The notes: generated by a model from the letters alone, not told the origin. Positions 1 to 7,647 are shown, numbered from the stretch's first letter. The stretch is 56,156 nt of DNA from a virus (IMGVR_UViG_3300045932_000155:1-56156), one strand, 5' to 3'. Made by a program: numbers and translations.

Positions 1-5
1 GGAAG

Positions 6-2018
6 TTGGGCTGCCATCCCACGGAGGCCGAGGCCCAAGAGCAGGAGCGCGTCGTGCAGGAGCGCGTCCGCCGGGCGGAGGCCCTCAACTCCCGGTTCGT
101 TGGTGACGACGACAGCATCGTGGTTCACGAAGTGCGCTCTGGTTTCGATCCCGATCAGCCCCGCGACGAGGGCGGCAAGTGGACTGATGGCGGCGCGGGC
201 GGAGGGGGCGAGGCTGACGTCACTGAGGAGTTGGACATCGATAGGTCCGCCGAGAAGGCGGCCGTCGATGAGCAGTATGAATACGTGCAGGAGGGCACGG
301 GCGGCCGGGAGCCTCTGGATCAGGATGAATACATCATTGGCACGGCGGCCCTCGAAGACTACACGACCGAAAACTATGCGGGGATGAACCGCATCATGAG
401 GACCAAGGACGATTGGTATAAGAACGAAGACTTGGCGATGTTGCATCGCTACATCGAGAATGCGCCGGAACTCGAAAACGACATCACCGTCTACCGAGGC
501 TTCCGCAATACCGGCAATCGCACCTTTGAAGTCGGGCAGGAAGTTGAGATGCGGGGCTTTGCCTCGACCTCCTTCCACCCGAAGGTCGCGGCCGATTTCG
601 CCGGGGGTCGTCCTGATACGAGCCGGGTGCAACTCTTCGAGATCAAGACCCGTCGAGGTCTGGTCCTTGGGGAGCGTTCAGCGGCCTCCGACACGGAGCA
701 CGAAACCATCCTGAACCACGGGTGGAAGTATCGAGTGACTGGCGTTCGTATGGCCAAGGTGCAGGGGACTGTCTACAAGGTGGCCCGGCTGGAGGAGATT
801 CGCGCCCGGCGCGGCGCGGTGCTCTACACCGAGGGTGATATTGAGATGTCTGTTCTGGAATTTGATCCGGACCAGCCTCGGGACGACGAGGGCCGATGGA
901 CCGGCGACGTGGCCGTGGCCTCAGAACGTTACCCGAGGGCGGATCTGAAGTCGCGCCCGGGAGCGGAAGTGTATTCAGGACGGGTGGGTGAATACGAGGT
1001 CCAGACCGACGTGCCAAACACGGGATCGATCTCCTCGACCTTCAACGAGGACGAGTATGAGGTGCTTCCGGGCATTCGAGAGGTCGAACTCAAGGATTGG
1101 AACATCAGCGAGAAGGACTACTATGCCTCCAACGACAGAGTCCGCACGAAGGAACTCGCGGAGGCGCTCAAGCTGTCCAAGTCCCTGAAGCCTTTGATCG
1201 TCGTCGCGGATCGAGACGATGACGACTACATTCTGGAGGGTGGTCATCGCTCCCGGGCGGCCAAGCTGGCCGGGATGACAAAGGTGCCCGCCGTCGTGGT
1301 TGTGAAGTATTCGGCCAAGAAGCGCGGCGCGGAGTTCGATCCTGACCAGCCCCGAGACGAAGATGGTAAGTGGACCGGCGGCGCGGGGGAGGGCGGAGGA
1401 GAGCCCGACCTCGGTGAGTTGCAATACGACGAGTCGGACGCCTCGGCCGCGATGGCCAACAGTCACCGAGAGTATCTGGAAAAGATTGAGGAGGCCGAGG
1501 AGTATAAGAATCGTGAGTTCGAGGGGATGAACGAAGCGATTACTGAATACACCGGGGCGGGAGCGTCACGCTGGAACGCGATTCTTCGAGAGAATCCCGA
1601 TGCGATGGACGATGACGATGAGCCCCGGGATGAAGATGACGACAGTCCCTTTGTGGCGGACGTGACCAAGAAGTGGATGCGCGACTTCGACGATGCTATC
1701 GCCGGGGCCCCGAAGCTCAAGGACCCGGTCACCGTCTATCGCGGCATCTCTCACGAGTTGAACGCCAAGGCTGGAGACACTCTGACGATGCGGGGGTTTC
1801 AGTCTGCATCGATGAAGCCTGAGATCGCGGCCCGCTTTAGCGCGGGAGGTTCCATTCTGAAGATTCGCACCAAGCGCGGTCTGTATATTGGAGGGAATTC
1901 TCGCGGAGGCGAGGACGAGTTCGTGATGGGACATAATGAACGCTTCGAAGTGAAGCGTGTGTCCAAGGGCAAGGTGGGCGGAAAGATCGTCCGAGTTTAC
2001 GAGGTGGAGCACCGATGA
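6..2018 (+). CDS. Head-associated multi-domain protein, probably 5'-truncated: two VIP2/Alt-type ADP-ribosyltransferase domains and one ParB/Srx-like domain, each preceded by an FDPDQPRDxxGxWT motif
   Basis: ART1 has TVYRG / FASTS / EHE; ART2 has TVYRG / FQSAS / EDE (R-S-ExE triad). The middle domain has LKPLIVV...ILEGGHRSRAAKLAGMTKVPAVVV (ParB-like). The frame is open to the window edge, so the TTG at 6 is probably not the real start. Confidence 0.85.
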   Translation: MGCHPTEAEAQEQERVVQERVRRAEALNSRFVGDDDSIVVHEVRSGFDPDQPRDEGGKWTDGGAGGGGEADVTEELDIDRSAEKAAVDEQYEYVQEGTGGREPLDQDEYIIGTAALEDYTTENYAGMNRIMRTKDDWYKNEDLAMLHRYIENAPELENDITVYRGFRNTGNRTFEVGQEVEMRGFASTSFHPKVAADFAGGRPDTSRVQLFEIKTRRGLVLGERSAASDTEHETILNHGWKYRVTGVRMAKVQGTVYKVARLEEIRARRGAVLYTEGDIEMSVLEFDPDQPRDDEGRWTGDVAVASERYPRADLKSRPGAEVYSGRVGEYEVQTDVPNTGSISSTFNEDEYEVLPGIREVELKDWNISEKDYYASNDRVRTKELAEALKLSKSLKPLIVVADRDDDDYILEGGHRSRAAKLAGMTKVPAVVVVKYSAKKRGAEFDPDQPRDEDGKWTGGAGEGGGEPDLGELQYDESDASAAMANSHREYLEKIEEAEEYKNREFEGMNEAITEYTGAGASRWNAILRENPDAMDDDDEPRDEDDDSPFVADVTKKWMRDFDDAIAGAPKLKDPVTVYRGISHELNAKAGDTLTMRGFQSASMKPEIAARFSAGGSILKIRTKRGLYIGGNSRGGEDEFVMGHNERFEVKRVSKGKVGGKIVRVYEVEHR

Positions 2019-4318
2019 GCGACCGATTCGTTCAGCCCGTCGAGGGCATCGAGATCACCCCGCGCAGGCCTTTCAAATCGTTTCAGGTCATTGGCCGGGA
2101 CGGCAAGCCAATGGGCCCGAAGATCCCCGTCGACTTGATGTATGATGGCGGGGTGCTGCCCTTCCGTTTCACCACCCTCAAGTCGACGGGGGTGGCCCCC
2201 CGCAGCCATCGGGAGCATGACCGGGACTATCTGATCGTCCCTGTGGTGGCTCTGACCGAGGGGGTCATCAGTGCCCTCGGGTCGAAGGCCCCGGAGTTCG
2301 TTCCCGCCGGGGTCTACGAAGATCGCCCGGAGCGGTGGAACAACCAGCCCCTCTACTACGGCCACCCCATGCGCTCAGGCCAGCCCATCTCGGGTTCGGC
2401 CCCCGACGTCATGGAGAAGCTGGCCTTCGGCTACACGCGGAACGCGGGCCTCAAGGACGGCCGCTTGAGCATGGAGGCGTGGGTCGACGTCGCCCGCGCC
2501 ATGCAGGTGGCCCCGATGCTCGTGACTCGCCTGCAGGAGGGCGACCCCATCGAGGTCTCGGTGGGAGCGTTCGTGGAGGTTGAGGAGCACGACGAGCGGC
2601 TCTACGCAGCCACGGGGCGTAAGTATAAGGGCACGTGGAAGCGTATGTCCCCCGACCATCTCGCCCTGCTCCCCTCGGGGCACACGGGCGCTTGCAGCAT
2701 CACGATGGGCTGCGGCGTTCGAGCGGCCTTGCAGGAATCGATGCGGGCGGCGGGCTTCGACCCGGACCAGCCCCGCGACGACAAGGGCATGTGGTCCAGC
2801 GGTGGCGGCGGAGGCGGCCCGATGGGCCGAGGATCGCTGCCGCGCCCGGTGCAGGAAGCAGTCAACTATCAGGAGGCCGCCAAGGATGAGAACTCCACGG
2901 AGGCCAAGCTGAACGGGCTGGCGCAGATCACCGACCGGGACGCGCTGACGCAGGTCGCGACCGGCAAGGCGGATTACAACGAAGTCGCCCGGCTGGAGAT
3001 GGCCAGCCGTGGGCTCGACCGCGAGGGCGAGTGGGTGGGCTTCGACAAGGCCAAGCAGATCTGGCCGGTCTCCGCCAAGACCCGGGGTGAGGTGGCAGGC
3101 AACGAGGAGAACACGACGACGTGGAAGCTCCTCGGGCCGCTCCAGACCGGCAAGACGAAGGACGTGCTGGCGCTGGCCAAGGGCAAGATTTCCGGCCGAC
3201 AGGTCGCCCGATACGAGTTGGCGAACCGGGGCATGGATCGCAACGGCAAGTGGGTCGGCTTCGACCGGGCGTTCGCTCAGTGGGGCTTCACCCCGCCGAA
3301 GAAGGCCGCCCGGCTGCTGCCGAAGGCCCCGAAGAGCAGCGTCACCCCGGTTGGCGGTCCCCTCCCATTGGGCCCCCTCGGGATTTCCCCGGCCAAGCGC
3401 CGGGCAGAAGAGGGAGATCGTATGAGCGTCATGGCGTGGGTGAAGTCGGTGCTTCGGGATGCCGCGAAGTCCGGCGACGAACTGGGGGCCCGGGAGATCG
3501 AGGACCGGCTTCGCAAGGCGCTGCAGGCCAAGGAAGGCCGCATGTGCTATATTCTTGACTTCTACCCCGAGGAGGGGACGGTGGTCTACGACGTAGACCT
3601 CGGCCATCCCGGGGATCTGCTGCCCACGGCCGCCGGTCCACGGCCCCTTCGGCAGCGGACCTTTGACGTGGCGGACGACGGGTCGGTCACGGTCGGAGAC
3701 ACCTCGACAGAGGTTGAGTTCATCGGGCGGTATGAGCCGCTCGAAGGAGATCCCGCCACGGGCAAGGCTGCGCCGTGCGGTTGTCATGACAAGCAGCCGA
3801 AGGAGATCACTATGAGGGAGGCAGTCAAGAATCTTCTGGCGAAGCTCGGCGCGAGCTTCACCGAGGAGAACGCCAAGTTCCTCGAAGGTGCGACGGACGA
3901 GCAGATCACTGCGCTCGAAACCGCCGTCACCCCGAAGGAAGTGGTGAAGGAAGTCGAGAAGATCGTCGAGAAGCAGGTCGAGGTTCCGGTGCAGCCGAAG
4001 ACGCTGGCCGAGGCCATCGGGGTGCTGAAGGCTGCGAAGGCGGACGAGGCGGCTGTGGCCTCCTACGATGCGTTCGTGGCTGCCGAGGCGGCCCGCAAGA
4101 CCGCGACGATCAAGGCGCTCAAGGACACTGGCAAGTGCCAGTTCACCGACGAGCAGCTTGCGGGCAAGGACCAGACGGAACTCGATCAGCTTGTCGCCCT
4201 CTCGGGTGCCAAGACGGTCAGCTTCGCCGGGCAGGCTCCGCGTGCGGCTCAGACGGACAACGCGGCTGCTCCTGCGCCCATCGATCTGGTGGCGCAGTTC
4301 CAGCAGAAGAAGCATTAA
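2015..4318 (+). CDS. Prohead (capsid maturation) protease, DUF2213-like, fused to an inserted cargo module and a C-terminal scaffold
   Basis: N-terminal WNNQPLYYGHP...EVSVG...PDHLALLP...GACSITMGCG pattern; lies before the capsid genes; Ala/Glu/Lys-rich helical C-terminus; in-frame ATGs at 3422 and 3812 each preceded by a Shine-Dalgarno (AGGGAG, AAGGAG). Confidence 0.8.
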   Translation: MSDRFVQPVEGIEITPRRPFKSFQVIGRDGKPMGPKIPVDLMYDGGVLPFRFTTLKSTGVAPRSHREHDRDYLIVPVVALTEGVISALGSKAPEFVPAGVYEDRPERWNNQPLYYGHPMRSGQPISGSAPDVMEKLAFGYTRNAGLKDGRLSMEAWVDVARAMQVAPMLVTRLQEGDPIEVSVGAFVEVEEHDERLYAATGRKYKGTWKRMSPDHLALLPSGHTGACSITMGCGVRAALQESMRAAGFDPDQPRDDKGMWSSGGGGGGPMGRGSLPRPVQEAVNYQEAAKDENSTEAKLNGLAQITDRDALTQVATGKADYNEVARLEMASRGLDREGEWVGFDKAKQIWPVSAKTRGEVAGNEENTTTWKLLGPLQTGKTKDVLALAKGKISGRQVARYELANRGMDRNGKWVGFDRAFAQWGFTPPKKAARLLPKAPKSSVTPVGGPLPLGPLGISPAKRRAEEGDRMSVMAWVKSVLRDAAKSGDELGAREIEDRLRKALQAKEGRMCYILDFYPEEGTVVYDVDLGHPGDLLPTAAGPRPLRQRTFDVADDGSVTVGDTSTEVEFIGRYEPLEGDPATGKAAPCGCHDKQPKEITMREAVKNLLAKLGASFTEENAKFLEGATDEQITALETAVTPKEVVKEVEKIVEKQVEVPVQPKTLAEAIGVLKAAKADEAAVASYDAFVAAEAARKTATIKALKDTGKCQFTDEQLAGKDQTELDQLVALSGAKTVSFAGQAPRAAQTDNAAAPAPIDLVAQFQQKKH

Positions 4319-4327
4319 GGGGGGACC

Positions 4328-4744
4328 GTGGCCGAATCCGTAGCGATTTCCGCGCAGGGAACGATCATCAAGCGGAACGGGACTGCCATCGCGGAACTCC
4401 GCGACATCACCCCGCCCGCGCTGACCCGCAACCCCATCGAGACGACGAATCACAACTCCGACGACGACAGCTACGTCGTGGGCATTCGCCGGAAGGGCGA
4501 GCTTCAGTTCAAACTGGGCTTCCTCCCCTCGGGCGAGGCGACTCACGATGCGCTGACCGGCCTGCTCGAAGCGTGGCTCAGCGGCTCGAAGGACCGATAC
4601 GATCTGGAATACCCGGACGGAGCCGTCTGGATGTTCTCCGGGTTCGTGTCGAACGTGGCCGCGACCGCGCCGGTGGACGGCGGGCTCGAAGCCGATGTCA
4701 GCATCCGCCCGAGTGGCGGGCAGCAGTTCACGCCCGGCAGCTAA
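4328..4744 (+). CDS. Major tail (tail tube) protein, lambda gpV-like
   Basis: IAELRDITPPALTRNPIETTNHNS...GIRRKGELQFKLGF...YPDGAVWMFSGFV matches the siphovirus tail tube pattern; no other tube candidate in the tail module. Confidence 0.75.
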   Translation: MAESVAISAQGTIIKRNGTAIAELRDITPPALTRNPIETTNHNSDDDSYVVGIRRKGELQFKLGFLPSGEATHDALTGLLEAWLSGSKDRYDLEYPDGAVWMFSGFVSNVAATAPVDGGLEADVSIRPSGGQQFTPGS

Positions 4745-4807
4745 CCCGGCAGGAACTGAAACTGAACAACTAGCAGCCGGGCAGGACCGGCAGAGGGAGA
4801 CAGCAAG

Positions 4808-5248
4808 ATGGCGACGAAGCGAAGTGTGGTGCAGGTCGGCTGCCCCATCGTCAACGAGGACGGTGCGGCCACCGAAACGATCAAGCCGGGATACCTCGTC
4901 AAGGGCATCTCGGACATCGCCAAGCAGACGGGCACGGGGTTCGTCCCCAAGGCCGTGGCTCTGGAGCGTGACGAACTGGGCGCGGGGATCGACGACACGC
5001 GTCAGGGTTCGGGCACGGTGTCGGCGGACTACGCGTCCGGCGACTACGTCAAGGTCGGCGTGTTCAAGTCGGGCGAGCGTGCCGTGGGCTACGTCGCGTC
5101 GGGCGAGAACATCTCCGAGGACGAACTGCTCGAATCGGCTGGCGACGGCACTTACGCCAGCGGCTCGACGAACCCGATTGCGCGTGCGGTCGAGAGCACC
5201 GGCGGCGCGGTCACCGTGGAAACGGCCATCGTGGTCGAGTTCCTCTAA
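4808..5248 (+). CDS. Head decoration / capsid cement protein
   Basis: 146-aa Gly/Ala/Val-rich beta-type protein directly upstream of the capsid gene; SD GGGAG. Confidence 0.7.
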   Translation: MATKRSVVQVGCPIVNEDGAATETIKPGYLVKGISDIAKQTGTGFVPKAVALERDELGAGIDDTRQGSGTVSADYASGDYVKVGVFKSGERAVGYVASGENISEDELLESAGDGTYASGSTNPIARAVESTGGAVTVETAIVVEFL

Positions 5249-5287
5249 TCGCGCAGCGAAGCGCAGAATCAGGAGACAGAGAACAAC

Positions 5288-6361
5288 ATGGCGACGAAGC
5301 GAAGCAACACGAAGGGCATCCGGTCGGCGGCGGCCGGGCGCGTCGGCACTCTGCGGAGTGCCGTTTCCACGGGCCAGCAGTTCTTCAACGGCGCGGCCGG
5401 ACGTTGGGCGACCGCCCAATTGAAGGCTCTGGCGCTGGAGGGCAAGGCTCTGAGCACCTCGGCACTCCGTGCGGCGGACACCCTCCGCCACGAGGAGTGG
5501 AAGTTCTTCGATGAGGCACTGCTCGAAGAGGCGAAGATCCGGCTGGTCGGCGTGGCCGACCTGATGGGTCGCGGCCTCGTCAAGCCGGTGACGAACGCCC
5601 TCGGCAAGACGGTGTTCGCCTACGAGAAGCTGACGGACATGGACCCCGCGACGGTCTCGCTGGACGGCATCAGCCGCAGCCACAACGACCGTCAGGAGTT
5701 CGAACTCGCGCAGCTTCCCCTGCCGATCATCCACAAGGACTTCTTCATCAACCTGCGCGTGCTGGCGGCCTCGCGTGAGCGTGGCGAGTCCCTCGACACG
5801 ACTCAGGTCCGCACGGCTGGCCGTGTCGTGGCCGAGGCGATGGAGGACATGCTGTTCAACGGCTCGAAGACGTTCGGTGGCCTGCCGATCTACGGCTACC
5901 TGACGCACCCGGACCGGAACGACGGCACGTTCATTGCCAACGGCGACTGGGCGCAGTCGGCCAAGACGGGCGAGAACATCCTCGCGGATGCTCTGAAGGC
6001 CATCTCGGCGCTGCACACCGACCGCATGTTCGGCCCGTATATCATCTACGTGCCGACCGATGCGGGCGTGAAGCTGGAGAACGACTTCAAGGCGAACTCG
6101 GACAAGACGATCCGGCAGCGTCTGGAGGAGATCGACAGCATCGCGGCGGTGCGCGTGGCGGACACCATGCCCTCGGGCAAGGTGCTCGTGGTCCAGATGA
6201 CGTCGGATGTCACCTCGTGGGTCAACGGCGAGAACATCCAGTCGATCCAGTGGGACGAATACGGCGGCTTCGAGATCAACTTCAAGGCCTTTGCCATCGG
6301 TGCGCCGCTCGTGCGCTCCGACGCGCAGAGCCGCTCGGGCGTCTACGAACTCCACTCGTAA
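5288..6361 (+). CDS. Major capsid protein (HK97 fold, encapsulin/Linocin-M18-like phage subtype)
   Basis: LRHEEWKFFD, LPLPIIHKDFFINLRVL..SR, LDTT...AGRVVAE.MEDMLFNG and IYGYLTHP motifs; 357 aa; strong codon bias; followed by a terminator. Confidence 0.9.
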   Translation: MATKRSNTKGIRSAAAGRVGTLRSAVSTGQQFFNGAAGRWATAQLKALALEGKALSTSALRAADTLRHEEWKFFDEALLEEAKIRLVGVADLMGRGLVKPVTNALGKTVFAYEKLTDMDPATVSLDGISRSHNDRQEFELAQLPLPIIHKDFFINLRVLAASRERGESLDTTQVRTAGRVVAEAMEDMLFNGSKTFGGLPIYGYLTHPDRNDGTFIANGDWAQSAKTGENILADALKAISALHTDRMFGPYIIYVPTDAGVKLENDFKANSDKTIRQRLEEIDSIAAVRVADTMPSGKVLVVQMTSDVTSWVNGENIQSIQWDEYGGFEINFKAFAIGAPLVRSDAQSRSGVYELHS

Positions 6362-6463: not shown

Positions 6464-7060
6464 ATGAGACGAGCGCTGTTCCTGCCGGGGGTCCTGTTGT
6501 CCCTTGCCATGTCTTGGCCGATTGACCGGCTGGAAAGGAGCCTCGGCAAACTGGAGATTGCCGATGGCATCTGCACGGCGTTTTCGATTCATCAGAAGAG
6601 GGCCCTCTTTGTGACGGCCACCCACTGTCTCGATGCTTCCCACGTGCCTACGACGACCCTCAACGGCGGGGCTCTCGTCCAGATTGTCGAGGCCATTCCC
6701 GGGGACTCCAGCCTGACGGTGCTGAAGGCAGCCAAGGGGCAACCCGCGCTGCGCCTCGGACCCCCGCCTCTACGCGGGGATGAGGTGCTCGTCCTCGGGT
6801 TCAGCACGCCTCCGGTCCTGCTGTTTTTCGAGGGTCTGCACATGGCCGATACCGCCGAGGTGGACGATACGACCGTGCAGGTCGTGACGGCCCCGGGGCT
6901 CCGAGGGATGTCCGGGGGTCCCATCGTCGATAGGAAAGGCCGGGTCGTTGGTGTTATGATGGGTGGGGCGCAAATCACCCCGCCGGTTCCAACGATGGTG
7001 AGTTTCGCTACGCACTATCAGCAGTTGGCCTCCATCATGGCCAAATACGGAGAGCAGTAA
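6464..7060 (+). CDS. Trypsin-like serine protease with a possible N-terminal signal peptide
   Basis: VTATHC (catalytic His) and GMSGGP (catalytic Ser) motifs; hydrophobic N-terminus. Confidence 0.85.
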   Translation: MRRALFLPGVLLSLAMSWPIDRLERSLGKLEIADGICTAFSIHQKRALFVTATHCLDASHVPTTTLNGGALVQIVEAIPGDSSLTVLKAAKGQPALRLGPPPLRGDEVLVLGFSTPPVLLFFEGLHMADTAEVDDTTVQVVTAPGLRGMSGGPIVDRKGRVVGVMMGGAQITPPVPTMVSFATHYQQLASIMAKYGEQ

Positions 7061-7647
7061 TGGCCCTTGACACGACTCCCGGCGCAGCGACTCAGAACAG
7101 CTACGCCACCCTCCTTGAGTTCGAAGCCTACGCGGAGAACCGCCTGCCGGTGGTGCAGTCCGTGCTCGACGCGACGGACGCGCAGAAGGAAGCGGCGCTG
7201 ATCCACGCGGCCCGCGCCCTCGACGCCAACTTCACGTGGACTGGTTCGGCGGTCGATGCCGTGCAGGCGCTCACGTGGCCCCGCAGCGGCATGCAGACGC
7301 GGAACGGGTTTGATATCGCGGAGAGCGGCGCGGCCTCCATCACGCAGCCCCTGAAGGACGCGCAGTGTGAGTGGGCCTACCAGATGCTGGCCGGGTCCAA
7401 CTTCATCGCGGATAACGAGGCGGCCAAGCAGGGCGTGGCCTCGGTTCGCGCCGGGTCCGTGGCCGTCTCCTTCCAGAGCAAGGGCACCTCGGTCGAGGAC
7501 ATGGACACGCAGATCCGCCTCATGGGTTCCGAGTTCAACTACGTCTCGCTGGCCGTGCCCGGCGAGGTGCGGCGGCTGCTGGTGCCCTCGTGGTTCGAGC
7601 AGCCCTCGGTGAAGCGCCCCCTGATCCTGCGGGCGATGGGAGGCTAA
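7060..7647 (+). CDS. Head-tail connector/adaptor (DnaT-like family)
   Basis: NSYATL.EF.AY, KEAALI.A.R.LD, QALTWPR, LKDAQCE motifs; position after the capsid gene. Confidence 0.8.
   Translation: MALDTTPGAATQNSYATLLEFEAYAENRLPVVQSVLDATDAQKEAALIHAARALDANFTWTGSAVDAVQALTWPRSGMQTRNGFDIAESGAASITQPLKDAQCEWAYQMLAGSNFIADNEAAKQGVASVRAGSVAVSFQSKGTSVEDMDTQIRLMGSEFNYVSLAVPGEVRRLLVPSWFEQPSVKRPLILRAMGG

Follow-up and report, generated by a model that had tools for sequence, protein, structure and literature searches.

The viral record IMGVR_UViG_3300045932_000155 is a linear stretch of 56,156 bases with an estimated completeness of 89%, and the whole record forms the window analysed here. Its first two open reading frames (ORFs), ORF1 and ORF2, are head genes in which a peptide of the form FDPDQPRDxxGxW occurs four times, each copy ahead of a separate domain. 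This peptide is a short linear motif of disordered linkers in phage-type polyvalent proteins of many uncultured phages, where it delimits every exchangeable cargo cassette on the N-terminal side; the cassettes either hang on capsid-interior anchors (portal, MuF or prohead protease) or follow a short N-terminal leader.

The junction motif in two adjoining head genes

A six-frame regular-expression scan of the window for DP.QPRD yields exactly four matches (147-167, 864-884, 1338-1358 and 2759-2779), of which the first three lie in the frame of ORF 3-2018 and the fourth in that of ORF 2015-4318. With the leading F included, the motif starts at 144, 861, 1335 and 2756, where an earlier inspection of the same DNA (hereafter the original prediction) had located its four copies, and no further copy exists. 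All four agree at F, D, P, D, Q, P, R, D, G and W. The back-translated FDPDQPRD pattern TTYGAYCCNGAYCARCCNCGNGAY has four matches in the window as against a mean of 0.00 and a maximum of 0 in 100 dinucleotide-preserving shuffles, which rules out a chance repeat. Moreover, the copies use different synonymous codons, with third-position changes such as TTC/TTT, CCC/CCG/CCT and CGC/CGG/CGA, and therefore the peptide and not the DNA is conserved, in agreement with the original prediction. By the same synonymous differences, a DNA repeat or recent duplication is ruled out.

Two further elements of the original prediction were borne out, namely the Gly-rich linker after three of the four copies (copies 1, 3 and 4) and, by Pfam, PHROG and self-alignment, the position of each copy before a separate domain: an ADP-ribosyltransferase (ART) module termed ART1, a ParB-like module, a second ART module (ART2) and a tandem repeat (Table 1). 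On the other hand, the fourth copy is not located inside the protease, as had been supposed, but in a disordered stretch directly behind the folded protease domain. For the first gene, given as ORF 6-2018, frame and stop stand, while the start has to be corrected, the open frame being 3-2018 and running off the 5' end of the contig.

The contig end thus falls inside ORF1, and since this ORF shows neither a preceding stop nor a start and the window equals the whole contig, the N-terminal part of the protein is absent. The stop codon overlaps the start of ORF2 by four bases (ATGA). Judged from its profile matches, the visible protein carries two R-S-E-type ADP-ribosyltransferases and a ParB-like domain. 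The Pfam E-values amount to 7.4e-20 for ADPrib_exo_Tox, 1.1e-12 for ART and 1.8e-5 for ParB_N, the latter below its curated cut-off; both ART matches exceed theirs (71.6 bits versus 23.4 and 48.2 versus 22.3). In addition, the ParB-like module matches the NCBIfam model TIGR00180 at 2e-9, and PHROG returns Alt-like ART as well as ParB-like matches. The ART residues YRG, STS/SAS and EHE/EDE can be read in the translation; R, S-x-S and E-x-E form the signature of R-S-E ADP-ribosyltransferases (C3/VIP2-like, PF03496/PF01129). In the AlphaFold2 (AF2) model of ORF1 every motif is situated in a linker modelled with low to moderate confidence and features a predicted R-W bridge, which in copy 1 is local, with a predicted local distance difference test (pLDDT) value of about 73.

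No hallmark anchor (MuF PF04233, portal, ART-PolyVal or DarB-like) was recognised in the 671 visible residues of ORF1, a protein truncated N-terminally where the contig ends; relatives carry PF04233, PF06074, PF06381 and PF18760. Among 57 proteins found with ORF1, 51 contain one to five motif copies, including one that is the window's own fragment (P0001), while five lack the motif and one represents a spurious match of the regular expression. Many of these proteins match via the motif only, with 2-8% coverage at 55-100% identity. With ORF1 as query and a threshold of 1e-5, tblastn recovered nothing from 50,697 phage records.

ORF2 combines a protease domain, the fourth motif copy, a tandem helical repeat and a scaffold-like region. 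Its N-terminal domain is modelled with a pLDDT above 94 and is followed, in this order, by a disordered stretch (residues 238-308, pLDDT < 50), two helical repeat units, another disordered stretch and a helical/beta C-terminal region. In a Foldseek comparison with the PDB, T4 gp21 (5jbl) ranked first (E 0.02, probability 1.00, template modelling score 0.59 on the target), ahead of the proteases of human cytomegalovirus and Kaposi's sarcoma-associated herpesvirus, the E-values being modest for a query that is a 767-residue multi-domain model. An alignment with 66 relatives is invariant at H117, S182, H215, C227 and C233. Because Foldseek places T4 gp21 and the herpesvirus proteases on top and H117, S182 and H215 are invariant, the modelled domain is assigned as a predicted assemblin-fold prohead protease of a divergent DUF2213 type, even though the Pfam match to DUF2213 reaches only E 0.0099. 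By extension, DUF2213 (PF09979, uncharacterised in Pfam) as a family looks like an assemblin-fold prohead protease in the light of this model. The titles and abstracts of papers mentioning DUF2213 yielded nothing on its function, and a sequence search of solved structures with ORF2 nothing relevant.

Merely six of the 66 ORF2 relatives bear the motif: P0058, which is 96% identical to the window protein, and P0083, P0091, P0097, P0100 and P0114; two more matches of the regular expression are devoid of the QPRD part. The five independent carriers measure 629-804 residues, as compared to about 480-640 in most relatives. As the motif is thus confined to the longer forms, a cassette of motif, linker and module has been inserted at the protease-scaffold joint. 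The C-terminal region of ORF2 aligns with the C-terminal halves of motif-less relatives, and its position and composition suggest a scaffold role. Self-alignment of the tandem repeat scores 123 versus a shuffle mean of 26 and a maximum of 43. Each repeat unit includes the sequence RG[LM]DR[EN]G[EK]WVGFD, which is similar to the RDxxGxW half of the motif and one residue shorter; this likeness may be a coincidence or reflect a related hairpin.

Table 1. Genes, domains and motif copies at the 5' end of the window (nucleotide positions; residues in amino acids, aa)
Feature	Position	Strand	Description and evidence
ORF1, 5'-truncated polyvalent head protein	3-2018	+	671 aa visible; helix, motif, ART1, motif, ParB-like, motif, ART2
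Motif copy 1	144-185	+	ORF1 aa 48-61; then Gly-rich linker 186-212
ART1 module (predicted)	345-767	+	Pfam ADPrib_exo_Tox aa 115-255; poorly modelled by AF2
Motif copy 2	861-902	+	ORF1 aa 287-300; without Gly-rich run behind
ParB-like N-terminal-domain module (predicted)	990-1322	+	ParB_N aa 381-432; GGHR box readable; AF2 confident aa 330-440
Motif copy 3	1335-1376	+	ORF1 aa 445-458; then Gly-rich linker 1377-1406
ART2 module (predicted)	1440-2015	+	ART/ADPrib_exo_Tox aa 577-657; PHROG 802, 3895; AF2 confident aa 480-671
ORF2	2015-4318	+	767 aa; protease domain, motif copy 4, two-copy helical module, scaffold-like C-terminal region
Predicted assemblin-fold prohead protease domain (divergent DUF2213)	2192-2725	+	aa 60-237; alignment, AF2, Foldseek
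Motif copy 4	2756-2797	+	ORF2 aa 248-261; then Gly-rich linker 2798-2821
Two-copy helical repeat module	2891-3283	+	aa 293-350 and 366-423; phrog_22970 1.3e-19, two stretches; AF2 helices
Scaffold-like C-terminal region of ORF2	3389-4318	+	long helices and small beta domain; AF2 secondary structure
Small tail-tube-like protein	4328-4744		138 aa; Phage_TTP_12 2.6e-12, phrog_158 (lambda-type tail-tube matches)
Protein without matches	4808-5248		146 aa
Major capsid protein, HK97 fold, DUF6260/Linocin_M18-like	5288-6361	+	Pfam DUF6260 3.1e-21, Linocin_M18 3.6e-12; PHROG
Trypsin-like serine peptidase	6464-7060		198 aa; Trypsin_2 8.1e-12, phrog_9683; hydrophobic N-terminus
Ad1 head-tail adaptor	7060-7647		

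Spread, anchors and cassette structure

The profile search that the original prediction had proposed reveals the motif to be general: a profile built from the four window copies and searched against 1.84 billion cluster representatives matched 1954 proteins at E <= 0.001, of which 316 reach E <= 1e-10 and 18 reach E <= 1e-30, with portal, MuF and prohead protease as anchors. The best matches are proteins of 1000-3800 residues with up to 12 matched stretches, and many carriers hold 4-12 copies. From 670 instances in 189 proteins, the consensus reads [AK][KA][FY][DSN]P[DNS]QPRD[ED]xG[RK]W[TS], followed by G-rich sequence, with a median spacing of 238 residues between motifs. R occurs in 99%, D in 97%, G in 100% and W in 87% of the instances, frequencies that are inflated by the retrieval method. 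The position before P is occupied by D in 45%, by S in 21% and by N in 19% of the instances; T or S follows W in 78%, and in about 16% A, G or V takes this place. Motif variants include QPRD..G[KR]W and HPRD..G[KR]F. Of the Pfam, PHROG and NCBIfam models matched by ORF1 or ORF2, none extends over the motif.

The exact string FDPDQPRD is present in 65 IMG/VR loci and a related pattern in 61 loci of species-representative genomes, about 35 of which hold an ORF that passes the peptide regular expression. Many of the 61 loci belong to Alphaproteobacteria and others to Actinomycetota, Acidobacteriota, Myxococcota, Desulfobacterota, Gemmatimonadales and Bacteroidota; Salipiger marinus DSM 26424, Methylocapsa palsarum NE2 and Kocuria dechangensis are among the isolates represented. 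When the window head proteins were compared with the 65 viral loci by tblastn, ART2 was matched in five, ART1 in one and the protease in one; carriers are therefore diverse. A viral-contig search with ORF2 found no close relatives of the window, and none of 125 pattern matches from a metagenome-contig search with ORF1 was confirmed as a relative. One viral locus deserves mention for its reading frame: at 1290-1320 of the AT-rich contig L056, a run of nine A and a frame change immediately precede the motif, in such a way that an upstream frame of 101 residues ends at the A run, while the 1558-residue motif frame opens five codons before the motif and lacks a start codon. This arrangement stems either from a sequencing error in the homopolymer or from programmed frameshifting.

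Among phage records, a tblastn search with 30 residues around copy 3 returned nothing at E 10, although the low-complexity filter may have masked the query, and 40 residues around copy 2 gave two weak matches at E 8, of which only that in Nocardia phage P3.1 (MW582532.1) shows the motif. This phage is the only cultured carrier found. Its motif protein comprises 236 residues (L128:4001-4711), is encoded between the portal and capsid genes and harbours the motif at residues 6-18. The protein is annotated as 'capsid maturation protease' and is basic and of low complexity, so that its appearance is that of a scaffold rather than a protease. The next gene encodes an M67 metallopeptidase. A tblastn search with P0002, one of the motif carriers, retrieved 68 phage records in which all listed matches are restricted to the MuF part, and three of the matched phages (of Brevundimonas, Arthrobacter and Microbacterium) are without the motif.

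Domain content was surveyed in several sets of carriers. The 126 loci supplied 102 distinct motif ORFs, and the 92 with at most 1000 residues were scanned, the 10 longer ones being left out. As anchors, these 92 contain 16 portals (PF04860 in 10, PF06381 in four, PF06074 in two), four MuF proteins and four prohead proteases (Peptidase_S78 in two, DUF2213 and Mu-like_Pro in one each). Recurring cargo comprises ADP-ribosyltransferases (four), Tox-REase-5 (three) and Zeta toxin (two), accompanied by single cases of Acb1, lysozyme, Ntox50, topoisomerase IB, pentapeptide and DRAT domains; the Acb1 domain in one motif-bearing protein is an anti-CBASS domain (CBASS, cyclic-oligonucleotide-based antiphage signaling system). 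Ten further ORFs include eight portals, in which the motif lies 15-80 residues behind the portal domain and is followed by a small C-terminal module. Another is a Mu-like protease whose domain spans residues 36-164 and, as in ORF2, is directly succeeded by the motif, here at residue 172, and the last has a Tox-REase-5 nuclease domain. Among the 27 best and 51 mid-size profile matches, MuF was found in six and nine, ART-PolyVal in five and seven, and ADPrib_exo_Tox in six and six, respectively, besides GNAT, topoisomerase IB, 2H phosphoesterase, Zeta toxin, PARP, Tpt1 and ParB domains. These tallies list 25 families each, and the best 150 of the 1954 profile matches were considered for annotation; within them, neither conjugation markers nor a peptidase domain common to the carriers appeared (ATLF in one of 27).

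In ten proteins scanned domain by domain, none of 30 motifs fell inside a Pfam envelope, and the number of motifs equalled that of non-anchor modules. Position at domain boundaries and a virion-protein context, the latter evident from the portal, MuF and protease anchors, had been set beforehand as tests, and both were upheld. Several portals of the PF04860 family (L031:6343-7998, L066:709-2364, L076:4074-5687, L103:1098-3227, L017, L065 and L068), which originate from viral contigs and alphaproteobacterial genomes, end in the motif and a conserved Cys-rich module of about 95 residues that has no Pfam match and also exists as a separate small ORF. In the portal L010:212-2230 (PF06381, 4e-68), the motif precedes only a His/Ala/Gly-rich tail of about 110 residues without a recognisable domain. 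Hence, a folded effector does not always follow the motif.

The relation between motif and module was examined in 169 proteins with at least two motifs by means of high-scoring segment pairs (HSPs) of at least 80 residues. HSPs that span a motif number 67 of 2386, as opposed to 885 under random placement; as the motif was masked with X in this count and could itself split HSPs, colinear resumption was checked as a control. Where HSP ends abut a motif with a module downstream, homology stops in 1163 of 1193 cases and resumes colinearly in 30. Homology between carriers thus ends at the motif, which therefore delimits shuffled cassettes. This HSP-end analysis replaced a single-linkage clustering of 964 modules, which was uninformative because 498 of them joined one cluster.

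The arrangement is also polar. In database proteins starting with M, no more than 30 residues precede the first motif in 57 of 169, while no more than 30 follow the last motif in two of 169, and for 74 complete locus ORFs the corresponding numbers are six versus three at 30 residues and 23 versus eight at 60. The motif belongs to the module behind it, and this polarity fits the notion in the original prediction of a tag ahead of every cargo. Directly ahead of the first motif, many carriers share an Ala/Leu/Arg-rich leader of 15-30 residues (like P..AARLL..A.R.A), as seen in P0002, P0030, P0044, P0161, P0168, P0182, P0213, P0221 and P0241. This leader helix may constitute a second conserved element and possibly the real targeting helix.

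Candidate partner proteins and competing explanations

Downstream of ORF1, Pfam and PHROG recognise the protease-scaffold gene, the capsid protein, the Ad1 adaptor and a connector. The capsid protein has 594 relatives at E <= 1e-10 and is the shell that would enclose the modules. The tail-tube-like gene between the protease-scaffold and capsid genes occupies an odd site for a tail tube protein, and for this reason its product may instead decorate the head or serve there as an accessory protein with a tail-tube fold. The head module holds a second protease gene, which encodes the trypsin-like peptidase and lies between those for capsid protein and adaptor. Window ORFs of at least 220 residues include no conspicuous candidate for a portal or terminase, and both genes presumably reside on the missing part of the genome. 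On the minus strand, an open frame of 1326 residues (2375-6355) lies opposite ORF2 and extends across the capsid gene; in all likelihood it results from the 65% G+C content and is no gene.

In 91 downstream neighbour ORFs from 52 motif loci, capsid proteins belong to Phage_capsid (six), Phage_cap_E (two) and Major_capside (two), to which the window adds DUF6260, while proteases comprise S78_2 (three), S78 (two), ClpP (one) and DUF2213 (one). The portals of motif-bearing phages fall into three Pfam families. A search of 18 large motif-bearing viral records, family by family at E <= 0.001, identified Peptidase_S78 in four, Peptidase_S78_2 in three, DUF2213 in seven and Mu-like_Pro in one. Altogether 15 of the 18 contain one of these four protease families (12 above the curated cut-off), ClpP occurs in none and MuF in nine. 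All eight records of at least 90% completeness possess one of the four families, six of them above the cut-off, with no matched phage baseline for comparison; DUF2213 was present in none of 14 control genomes. It is suggestive that a prohead protease of these families is the most constant companion of the motif. A co-fold of the motif peptide with the ORF2 protease domain (residues 55-240) and the capsid protein returned a score of 0.01 and a mark of 0.32, which speaks neither for nor against binding.

Regarding function, we tentatively favour the motif as a docking and processing signal for an assemblin-type prohead protease, by analogy to the capsid targeting sequence (CTS) of phage T4, a proposal that is possible but falls short of being probable. 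Its reader would be the prohead protease of the assembly core, here the predicted N-terminal domain of ORF2. Docking would bring each module into the prohead or keep it there, and cleavage at or beside the motif would free the modules from portal, MuF, protease and one another, thereby allowing their exit with the DNA; as a secondary effect, the common junction would permit cassette swapping between phages. Cargo fused to a portal crown could not be injected uncut, and the motif is the sole conserved element at this joint. A processing signal would account for the occurrence of the motif behind portals and short leaders, between the protease and scaffold parts of ORF2 and at the beginning of the scaffold-like protein, and would likewise explain the constant company of such a protease. 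In T4, internal proteins lose their targeting sequence through gp21, which also processes Alt. Moreover, a preference for Glu at P1 is common to the distant assemblin-type proteases of T4 and phiKZ-like phages, so that specificity conserved across deep divergence has a precedent.

Several observations weigh against a processing signal. The 14 conserved residues go far beyond what known prohead-protease sites need, and the co-occurring proteases span at least four Pfam families. The major capsid protein, a canonical substrate of such proteases, is missing among the families listed for the 92 motif ORFs. Two of the eight protease matches in the near-complete records are sub-threshold, and the complete co-occurrence in these records lacks a matched baseline; in addition, one of the 91 neighbour ORFs is a ClpP-type protease. 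In the 57 of 169 proteins with the motif at most 30 residues from the N-terminus, cutting would remove only a short leader, which fits an uncleaved tag no less well, and in some portals the motif is followed by nothing but a low-complexity tail.

The foremost alternative, which we consider somewhat unlikely and which corresponds to the main interpretation of the original prediction, is such a tag for packaging, retention or ejection that would bind a surface inside the capsid (shell, portal crown, scaffold or MuF) or prime portal threading and would remain uncut. It draws on the N-terminal polarity (57 versus two of 169; 23 versus eight among the 74 locus ORFs at 60 residues), on stand-alone small proteins with the motif behind a leader of 15-30 residues, on the P3.1 head-module protein, which begins with the motif, and on the equality of motif and non-anchor module counts. 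Besides, the succession of short linear motif, flexible Gly linker and cargo is the layout of known loading peptides. These features are opposed by the near-invariance of the motif in phages whose shells belong to several and whose portals belong to three Pfam families, and by the detection of MuF in only nine of the 18 large records. Furthermore, modules fused to a portal or protease would be enclosed without any tag and could not exit uncleaved. A co-evolved encapsulin-type tag for shell binding is less likely than supposed in the original prediction, because the motif-bearing phages have capsids and portals of several Pfam families.

The loss of homology behind the motif at 1163 of 1193 HSP ends and the recurrence of the same cargo families behind different anchors would also be expected of a passive junction, i.e., a linker kept mainly for cassette recombination that has no dedicated protein partner, comparable to the conserved motifs ahead of the variable toxin ends in CdiA and Rhs. 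Such an origin is nevertheless improbable: the peptide is conserved while synonymous sites change freely, a pattern that indicates selection for the amino-acid sequence and not for DNA identity, and recombination alone leaves the near-invariant R, D, G and W across several bacterial phyla unexplained.

Even less probable is a signal that acts in the host after injection, where a conserved bacterial protease, chaperone or hub protein would separate, refold or localise the effectors. The sameness of the motif in elements from Alphaproteobacteria, Actinomycetota, Acidobacteriota, Myxococcota, Desulfobacterota and Bacteroidota, whose phage head proteins differ, would suit a reader of this kind. 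Yet the motif is also encountered without an effector behind it, as in the portal with a low-complexity tail or at the N-terminus of the scaffold-like protein, and the copy at the protease-scaffold joint of ORF2 stands in a head-assembly context. Finally, a self-cleaving element is scarcely credible. Many copies have D-P or N-P at their start, and W is mostly followed by T or S, as Asp/Asn-Pro breakage or an N-to-O shift at Trp-Thr/Ser would demand, but neither chemistry is conserved, given S before P in 21% and A, G or V after W in about 16%, and a disordered peptide of 14 residues has no fold to catalyse it. An EF-hand/dockerin-like metal loop, an SH3/WW ligand and a 2A-like skipping peptide were considered and dropped, as the spacing of their key residues does not seem to fit.

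Relation to known systems and significance

The T4 CTS offers a functional parallel to the processing signal proposed above: a short N-terminal peptide on packaged and injected proteins that is removed by an assemblin-fold prohead protease, with an ADP-ribosyltransferase among its cargo. Different from the motif, which is repeated in polyproteins and distributed across head-protein families, the CTS has about 10 residues, is lineage-specific and occurs once per protein. The motif consensus bears no likeness to the T4 peptide or its L/I-x-E site, and the comparison is a functional one only.

Cargo-loading peptides of encapsulins resemble the motif in being short peptides on a flexible linker that serve diverse cargo and an HK97-fold shell, and the window capsid protein matches Linocin_M18. 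They differ in being mostly C-terminal, of unrelated sequence and tied to one shell family, whereas here the shells belong to several families and the motif is N-terminal to cargo and near the C-terminus in only two of 169 proteins. VENN in CdiA and DPxGL in Rhs proteins precede exchangeable toxin ends, MARTX arrays are processed by their CPD, and the joint in Rhs and MARTX proteins is also a processing site. In these systems, too, a conserved short motif demarcates exchangeable toxin modules; their sequences are different, they employ secretion systems and not a capsid, and they usually have one variable end, compared to up to 12 cassettes here.

Among published phage systems, polyvalent proteins (Iyer, Burroughs, Anand, de Souza and Aravind 2017, PMC5512222) are described as combining several effector domains in one polypeptide, as being fused or adjacent to MuF or portal and as predicted to be packaged and injected, with in-cis zincin metallopeptidase domains proposed for processing. 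The motif carriers in general are proteins of this kind. ORF1 has two properties of the class, as it contains at least two distinct effector domains (two predicted ARTs and a ParB_N-like domain) and is located among head genes, with the protease-scaffold, capsid, adaptor and connector genes downstream. The effector sets coincide in ART, ParB, GNAT, 2H and TopoIB domains, and the top motif carriers hold ART-PolyVal together with MuF. In contrast to the published account, the carriers here have no peptidase in common and a conserved junction peptide recurs instead. The main text of PMC5512222 contains no linker, spacer or boundary wording that would correspond to the junction motif, which its supplementary alignments may show.

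Similarly, the MuF polymorphic toxins (Jamet et al. 2017, PMC5576092) consist of a head-protein anchor and a variable toxin, with ART and other families in common with the present carriers. ORF1 departs from that scheme by three cargo modules in place of a single C-terminal toxin. A MuF toxin is also defined by a single toxin with an adjacent immunity gene; the gene next to ORF1 is ORF2, and no wider search for immunity genes was made. The text of PMC5576092 is devoid of linker, cleavage, junction or conserved-motif wording that would refer to the motif. Literature searches with motif spellings as strings retrieved no relevant paper, and a 2026 portal paper (PMC13483052) is unrelated to the motif.

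Multi-effector head proteins and fusions of ART or ParB domains to MuF or portal are already known (PMC5512222, PMC5576092). In the original prediction of a modular packaging-tag polyprotein, the modular peptide ahead of cargo on capsid-interior anchors therefore stands, while the idea of multi-effector delivery had been published before. The window genes are new, otherwise ordinary members of the polyvalent class, and the junction motif is apparently undescribed.

The proposal in print for separating such modules (PMC5512222) is the action of in-cis metallopeptidases, which are absent from most carriers here. The conserved junction peptide provides a sequence handle for injected effectors and anti-defence proteins, e.g., Acb1, and helps to delimit unknown modules in giant phage proteins. 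A broader interpretation holds that the motif is a portable, near-universal tag for loading and processing, so that one peptide of 14 residues, read by the prohead assembly core, would be sufficient to load any protein into the heads of phages of several bacterial phyla and to release it there, which appears unlikely at present. If it were true, the sequences behind the tag in about 2000 protein clusters would constitute a catalogue of injected phage effectors, including many modules without a known family, and the tag could load foreign cargo into phage heads.

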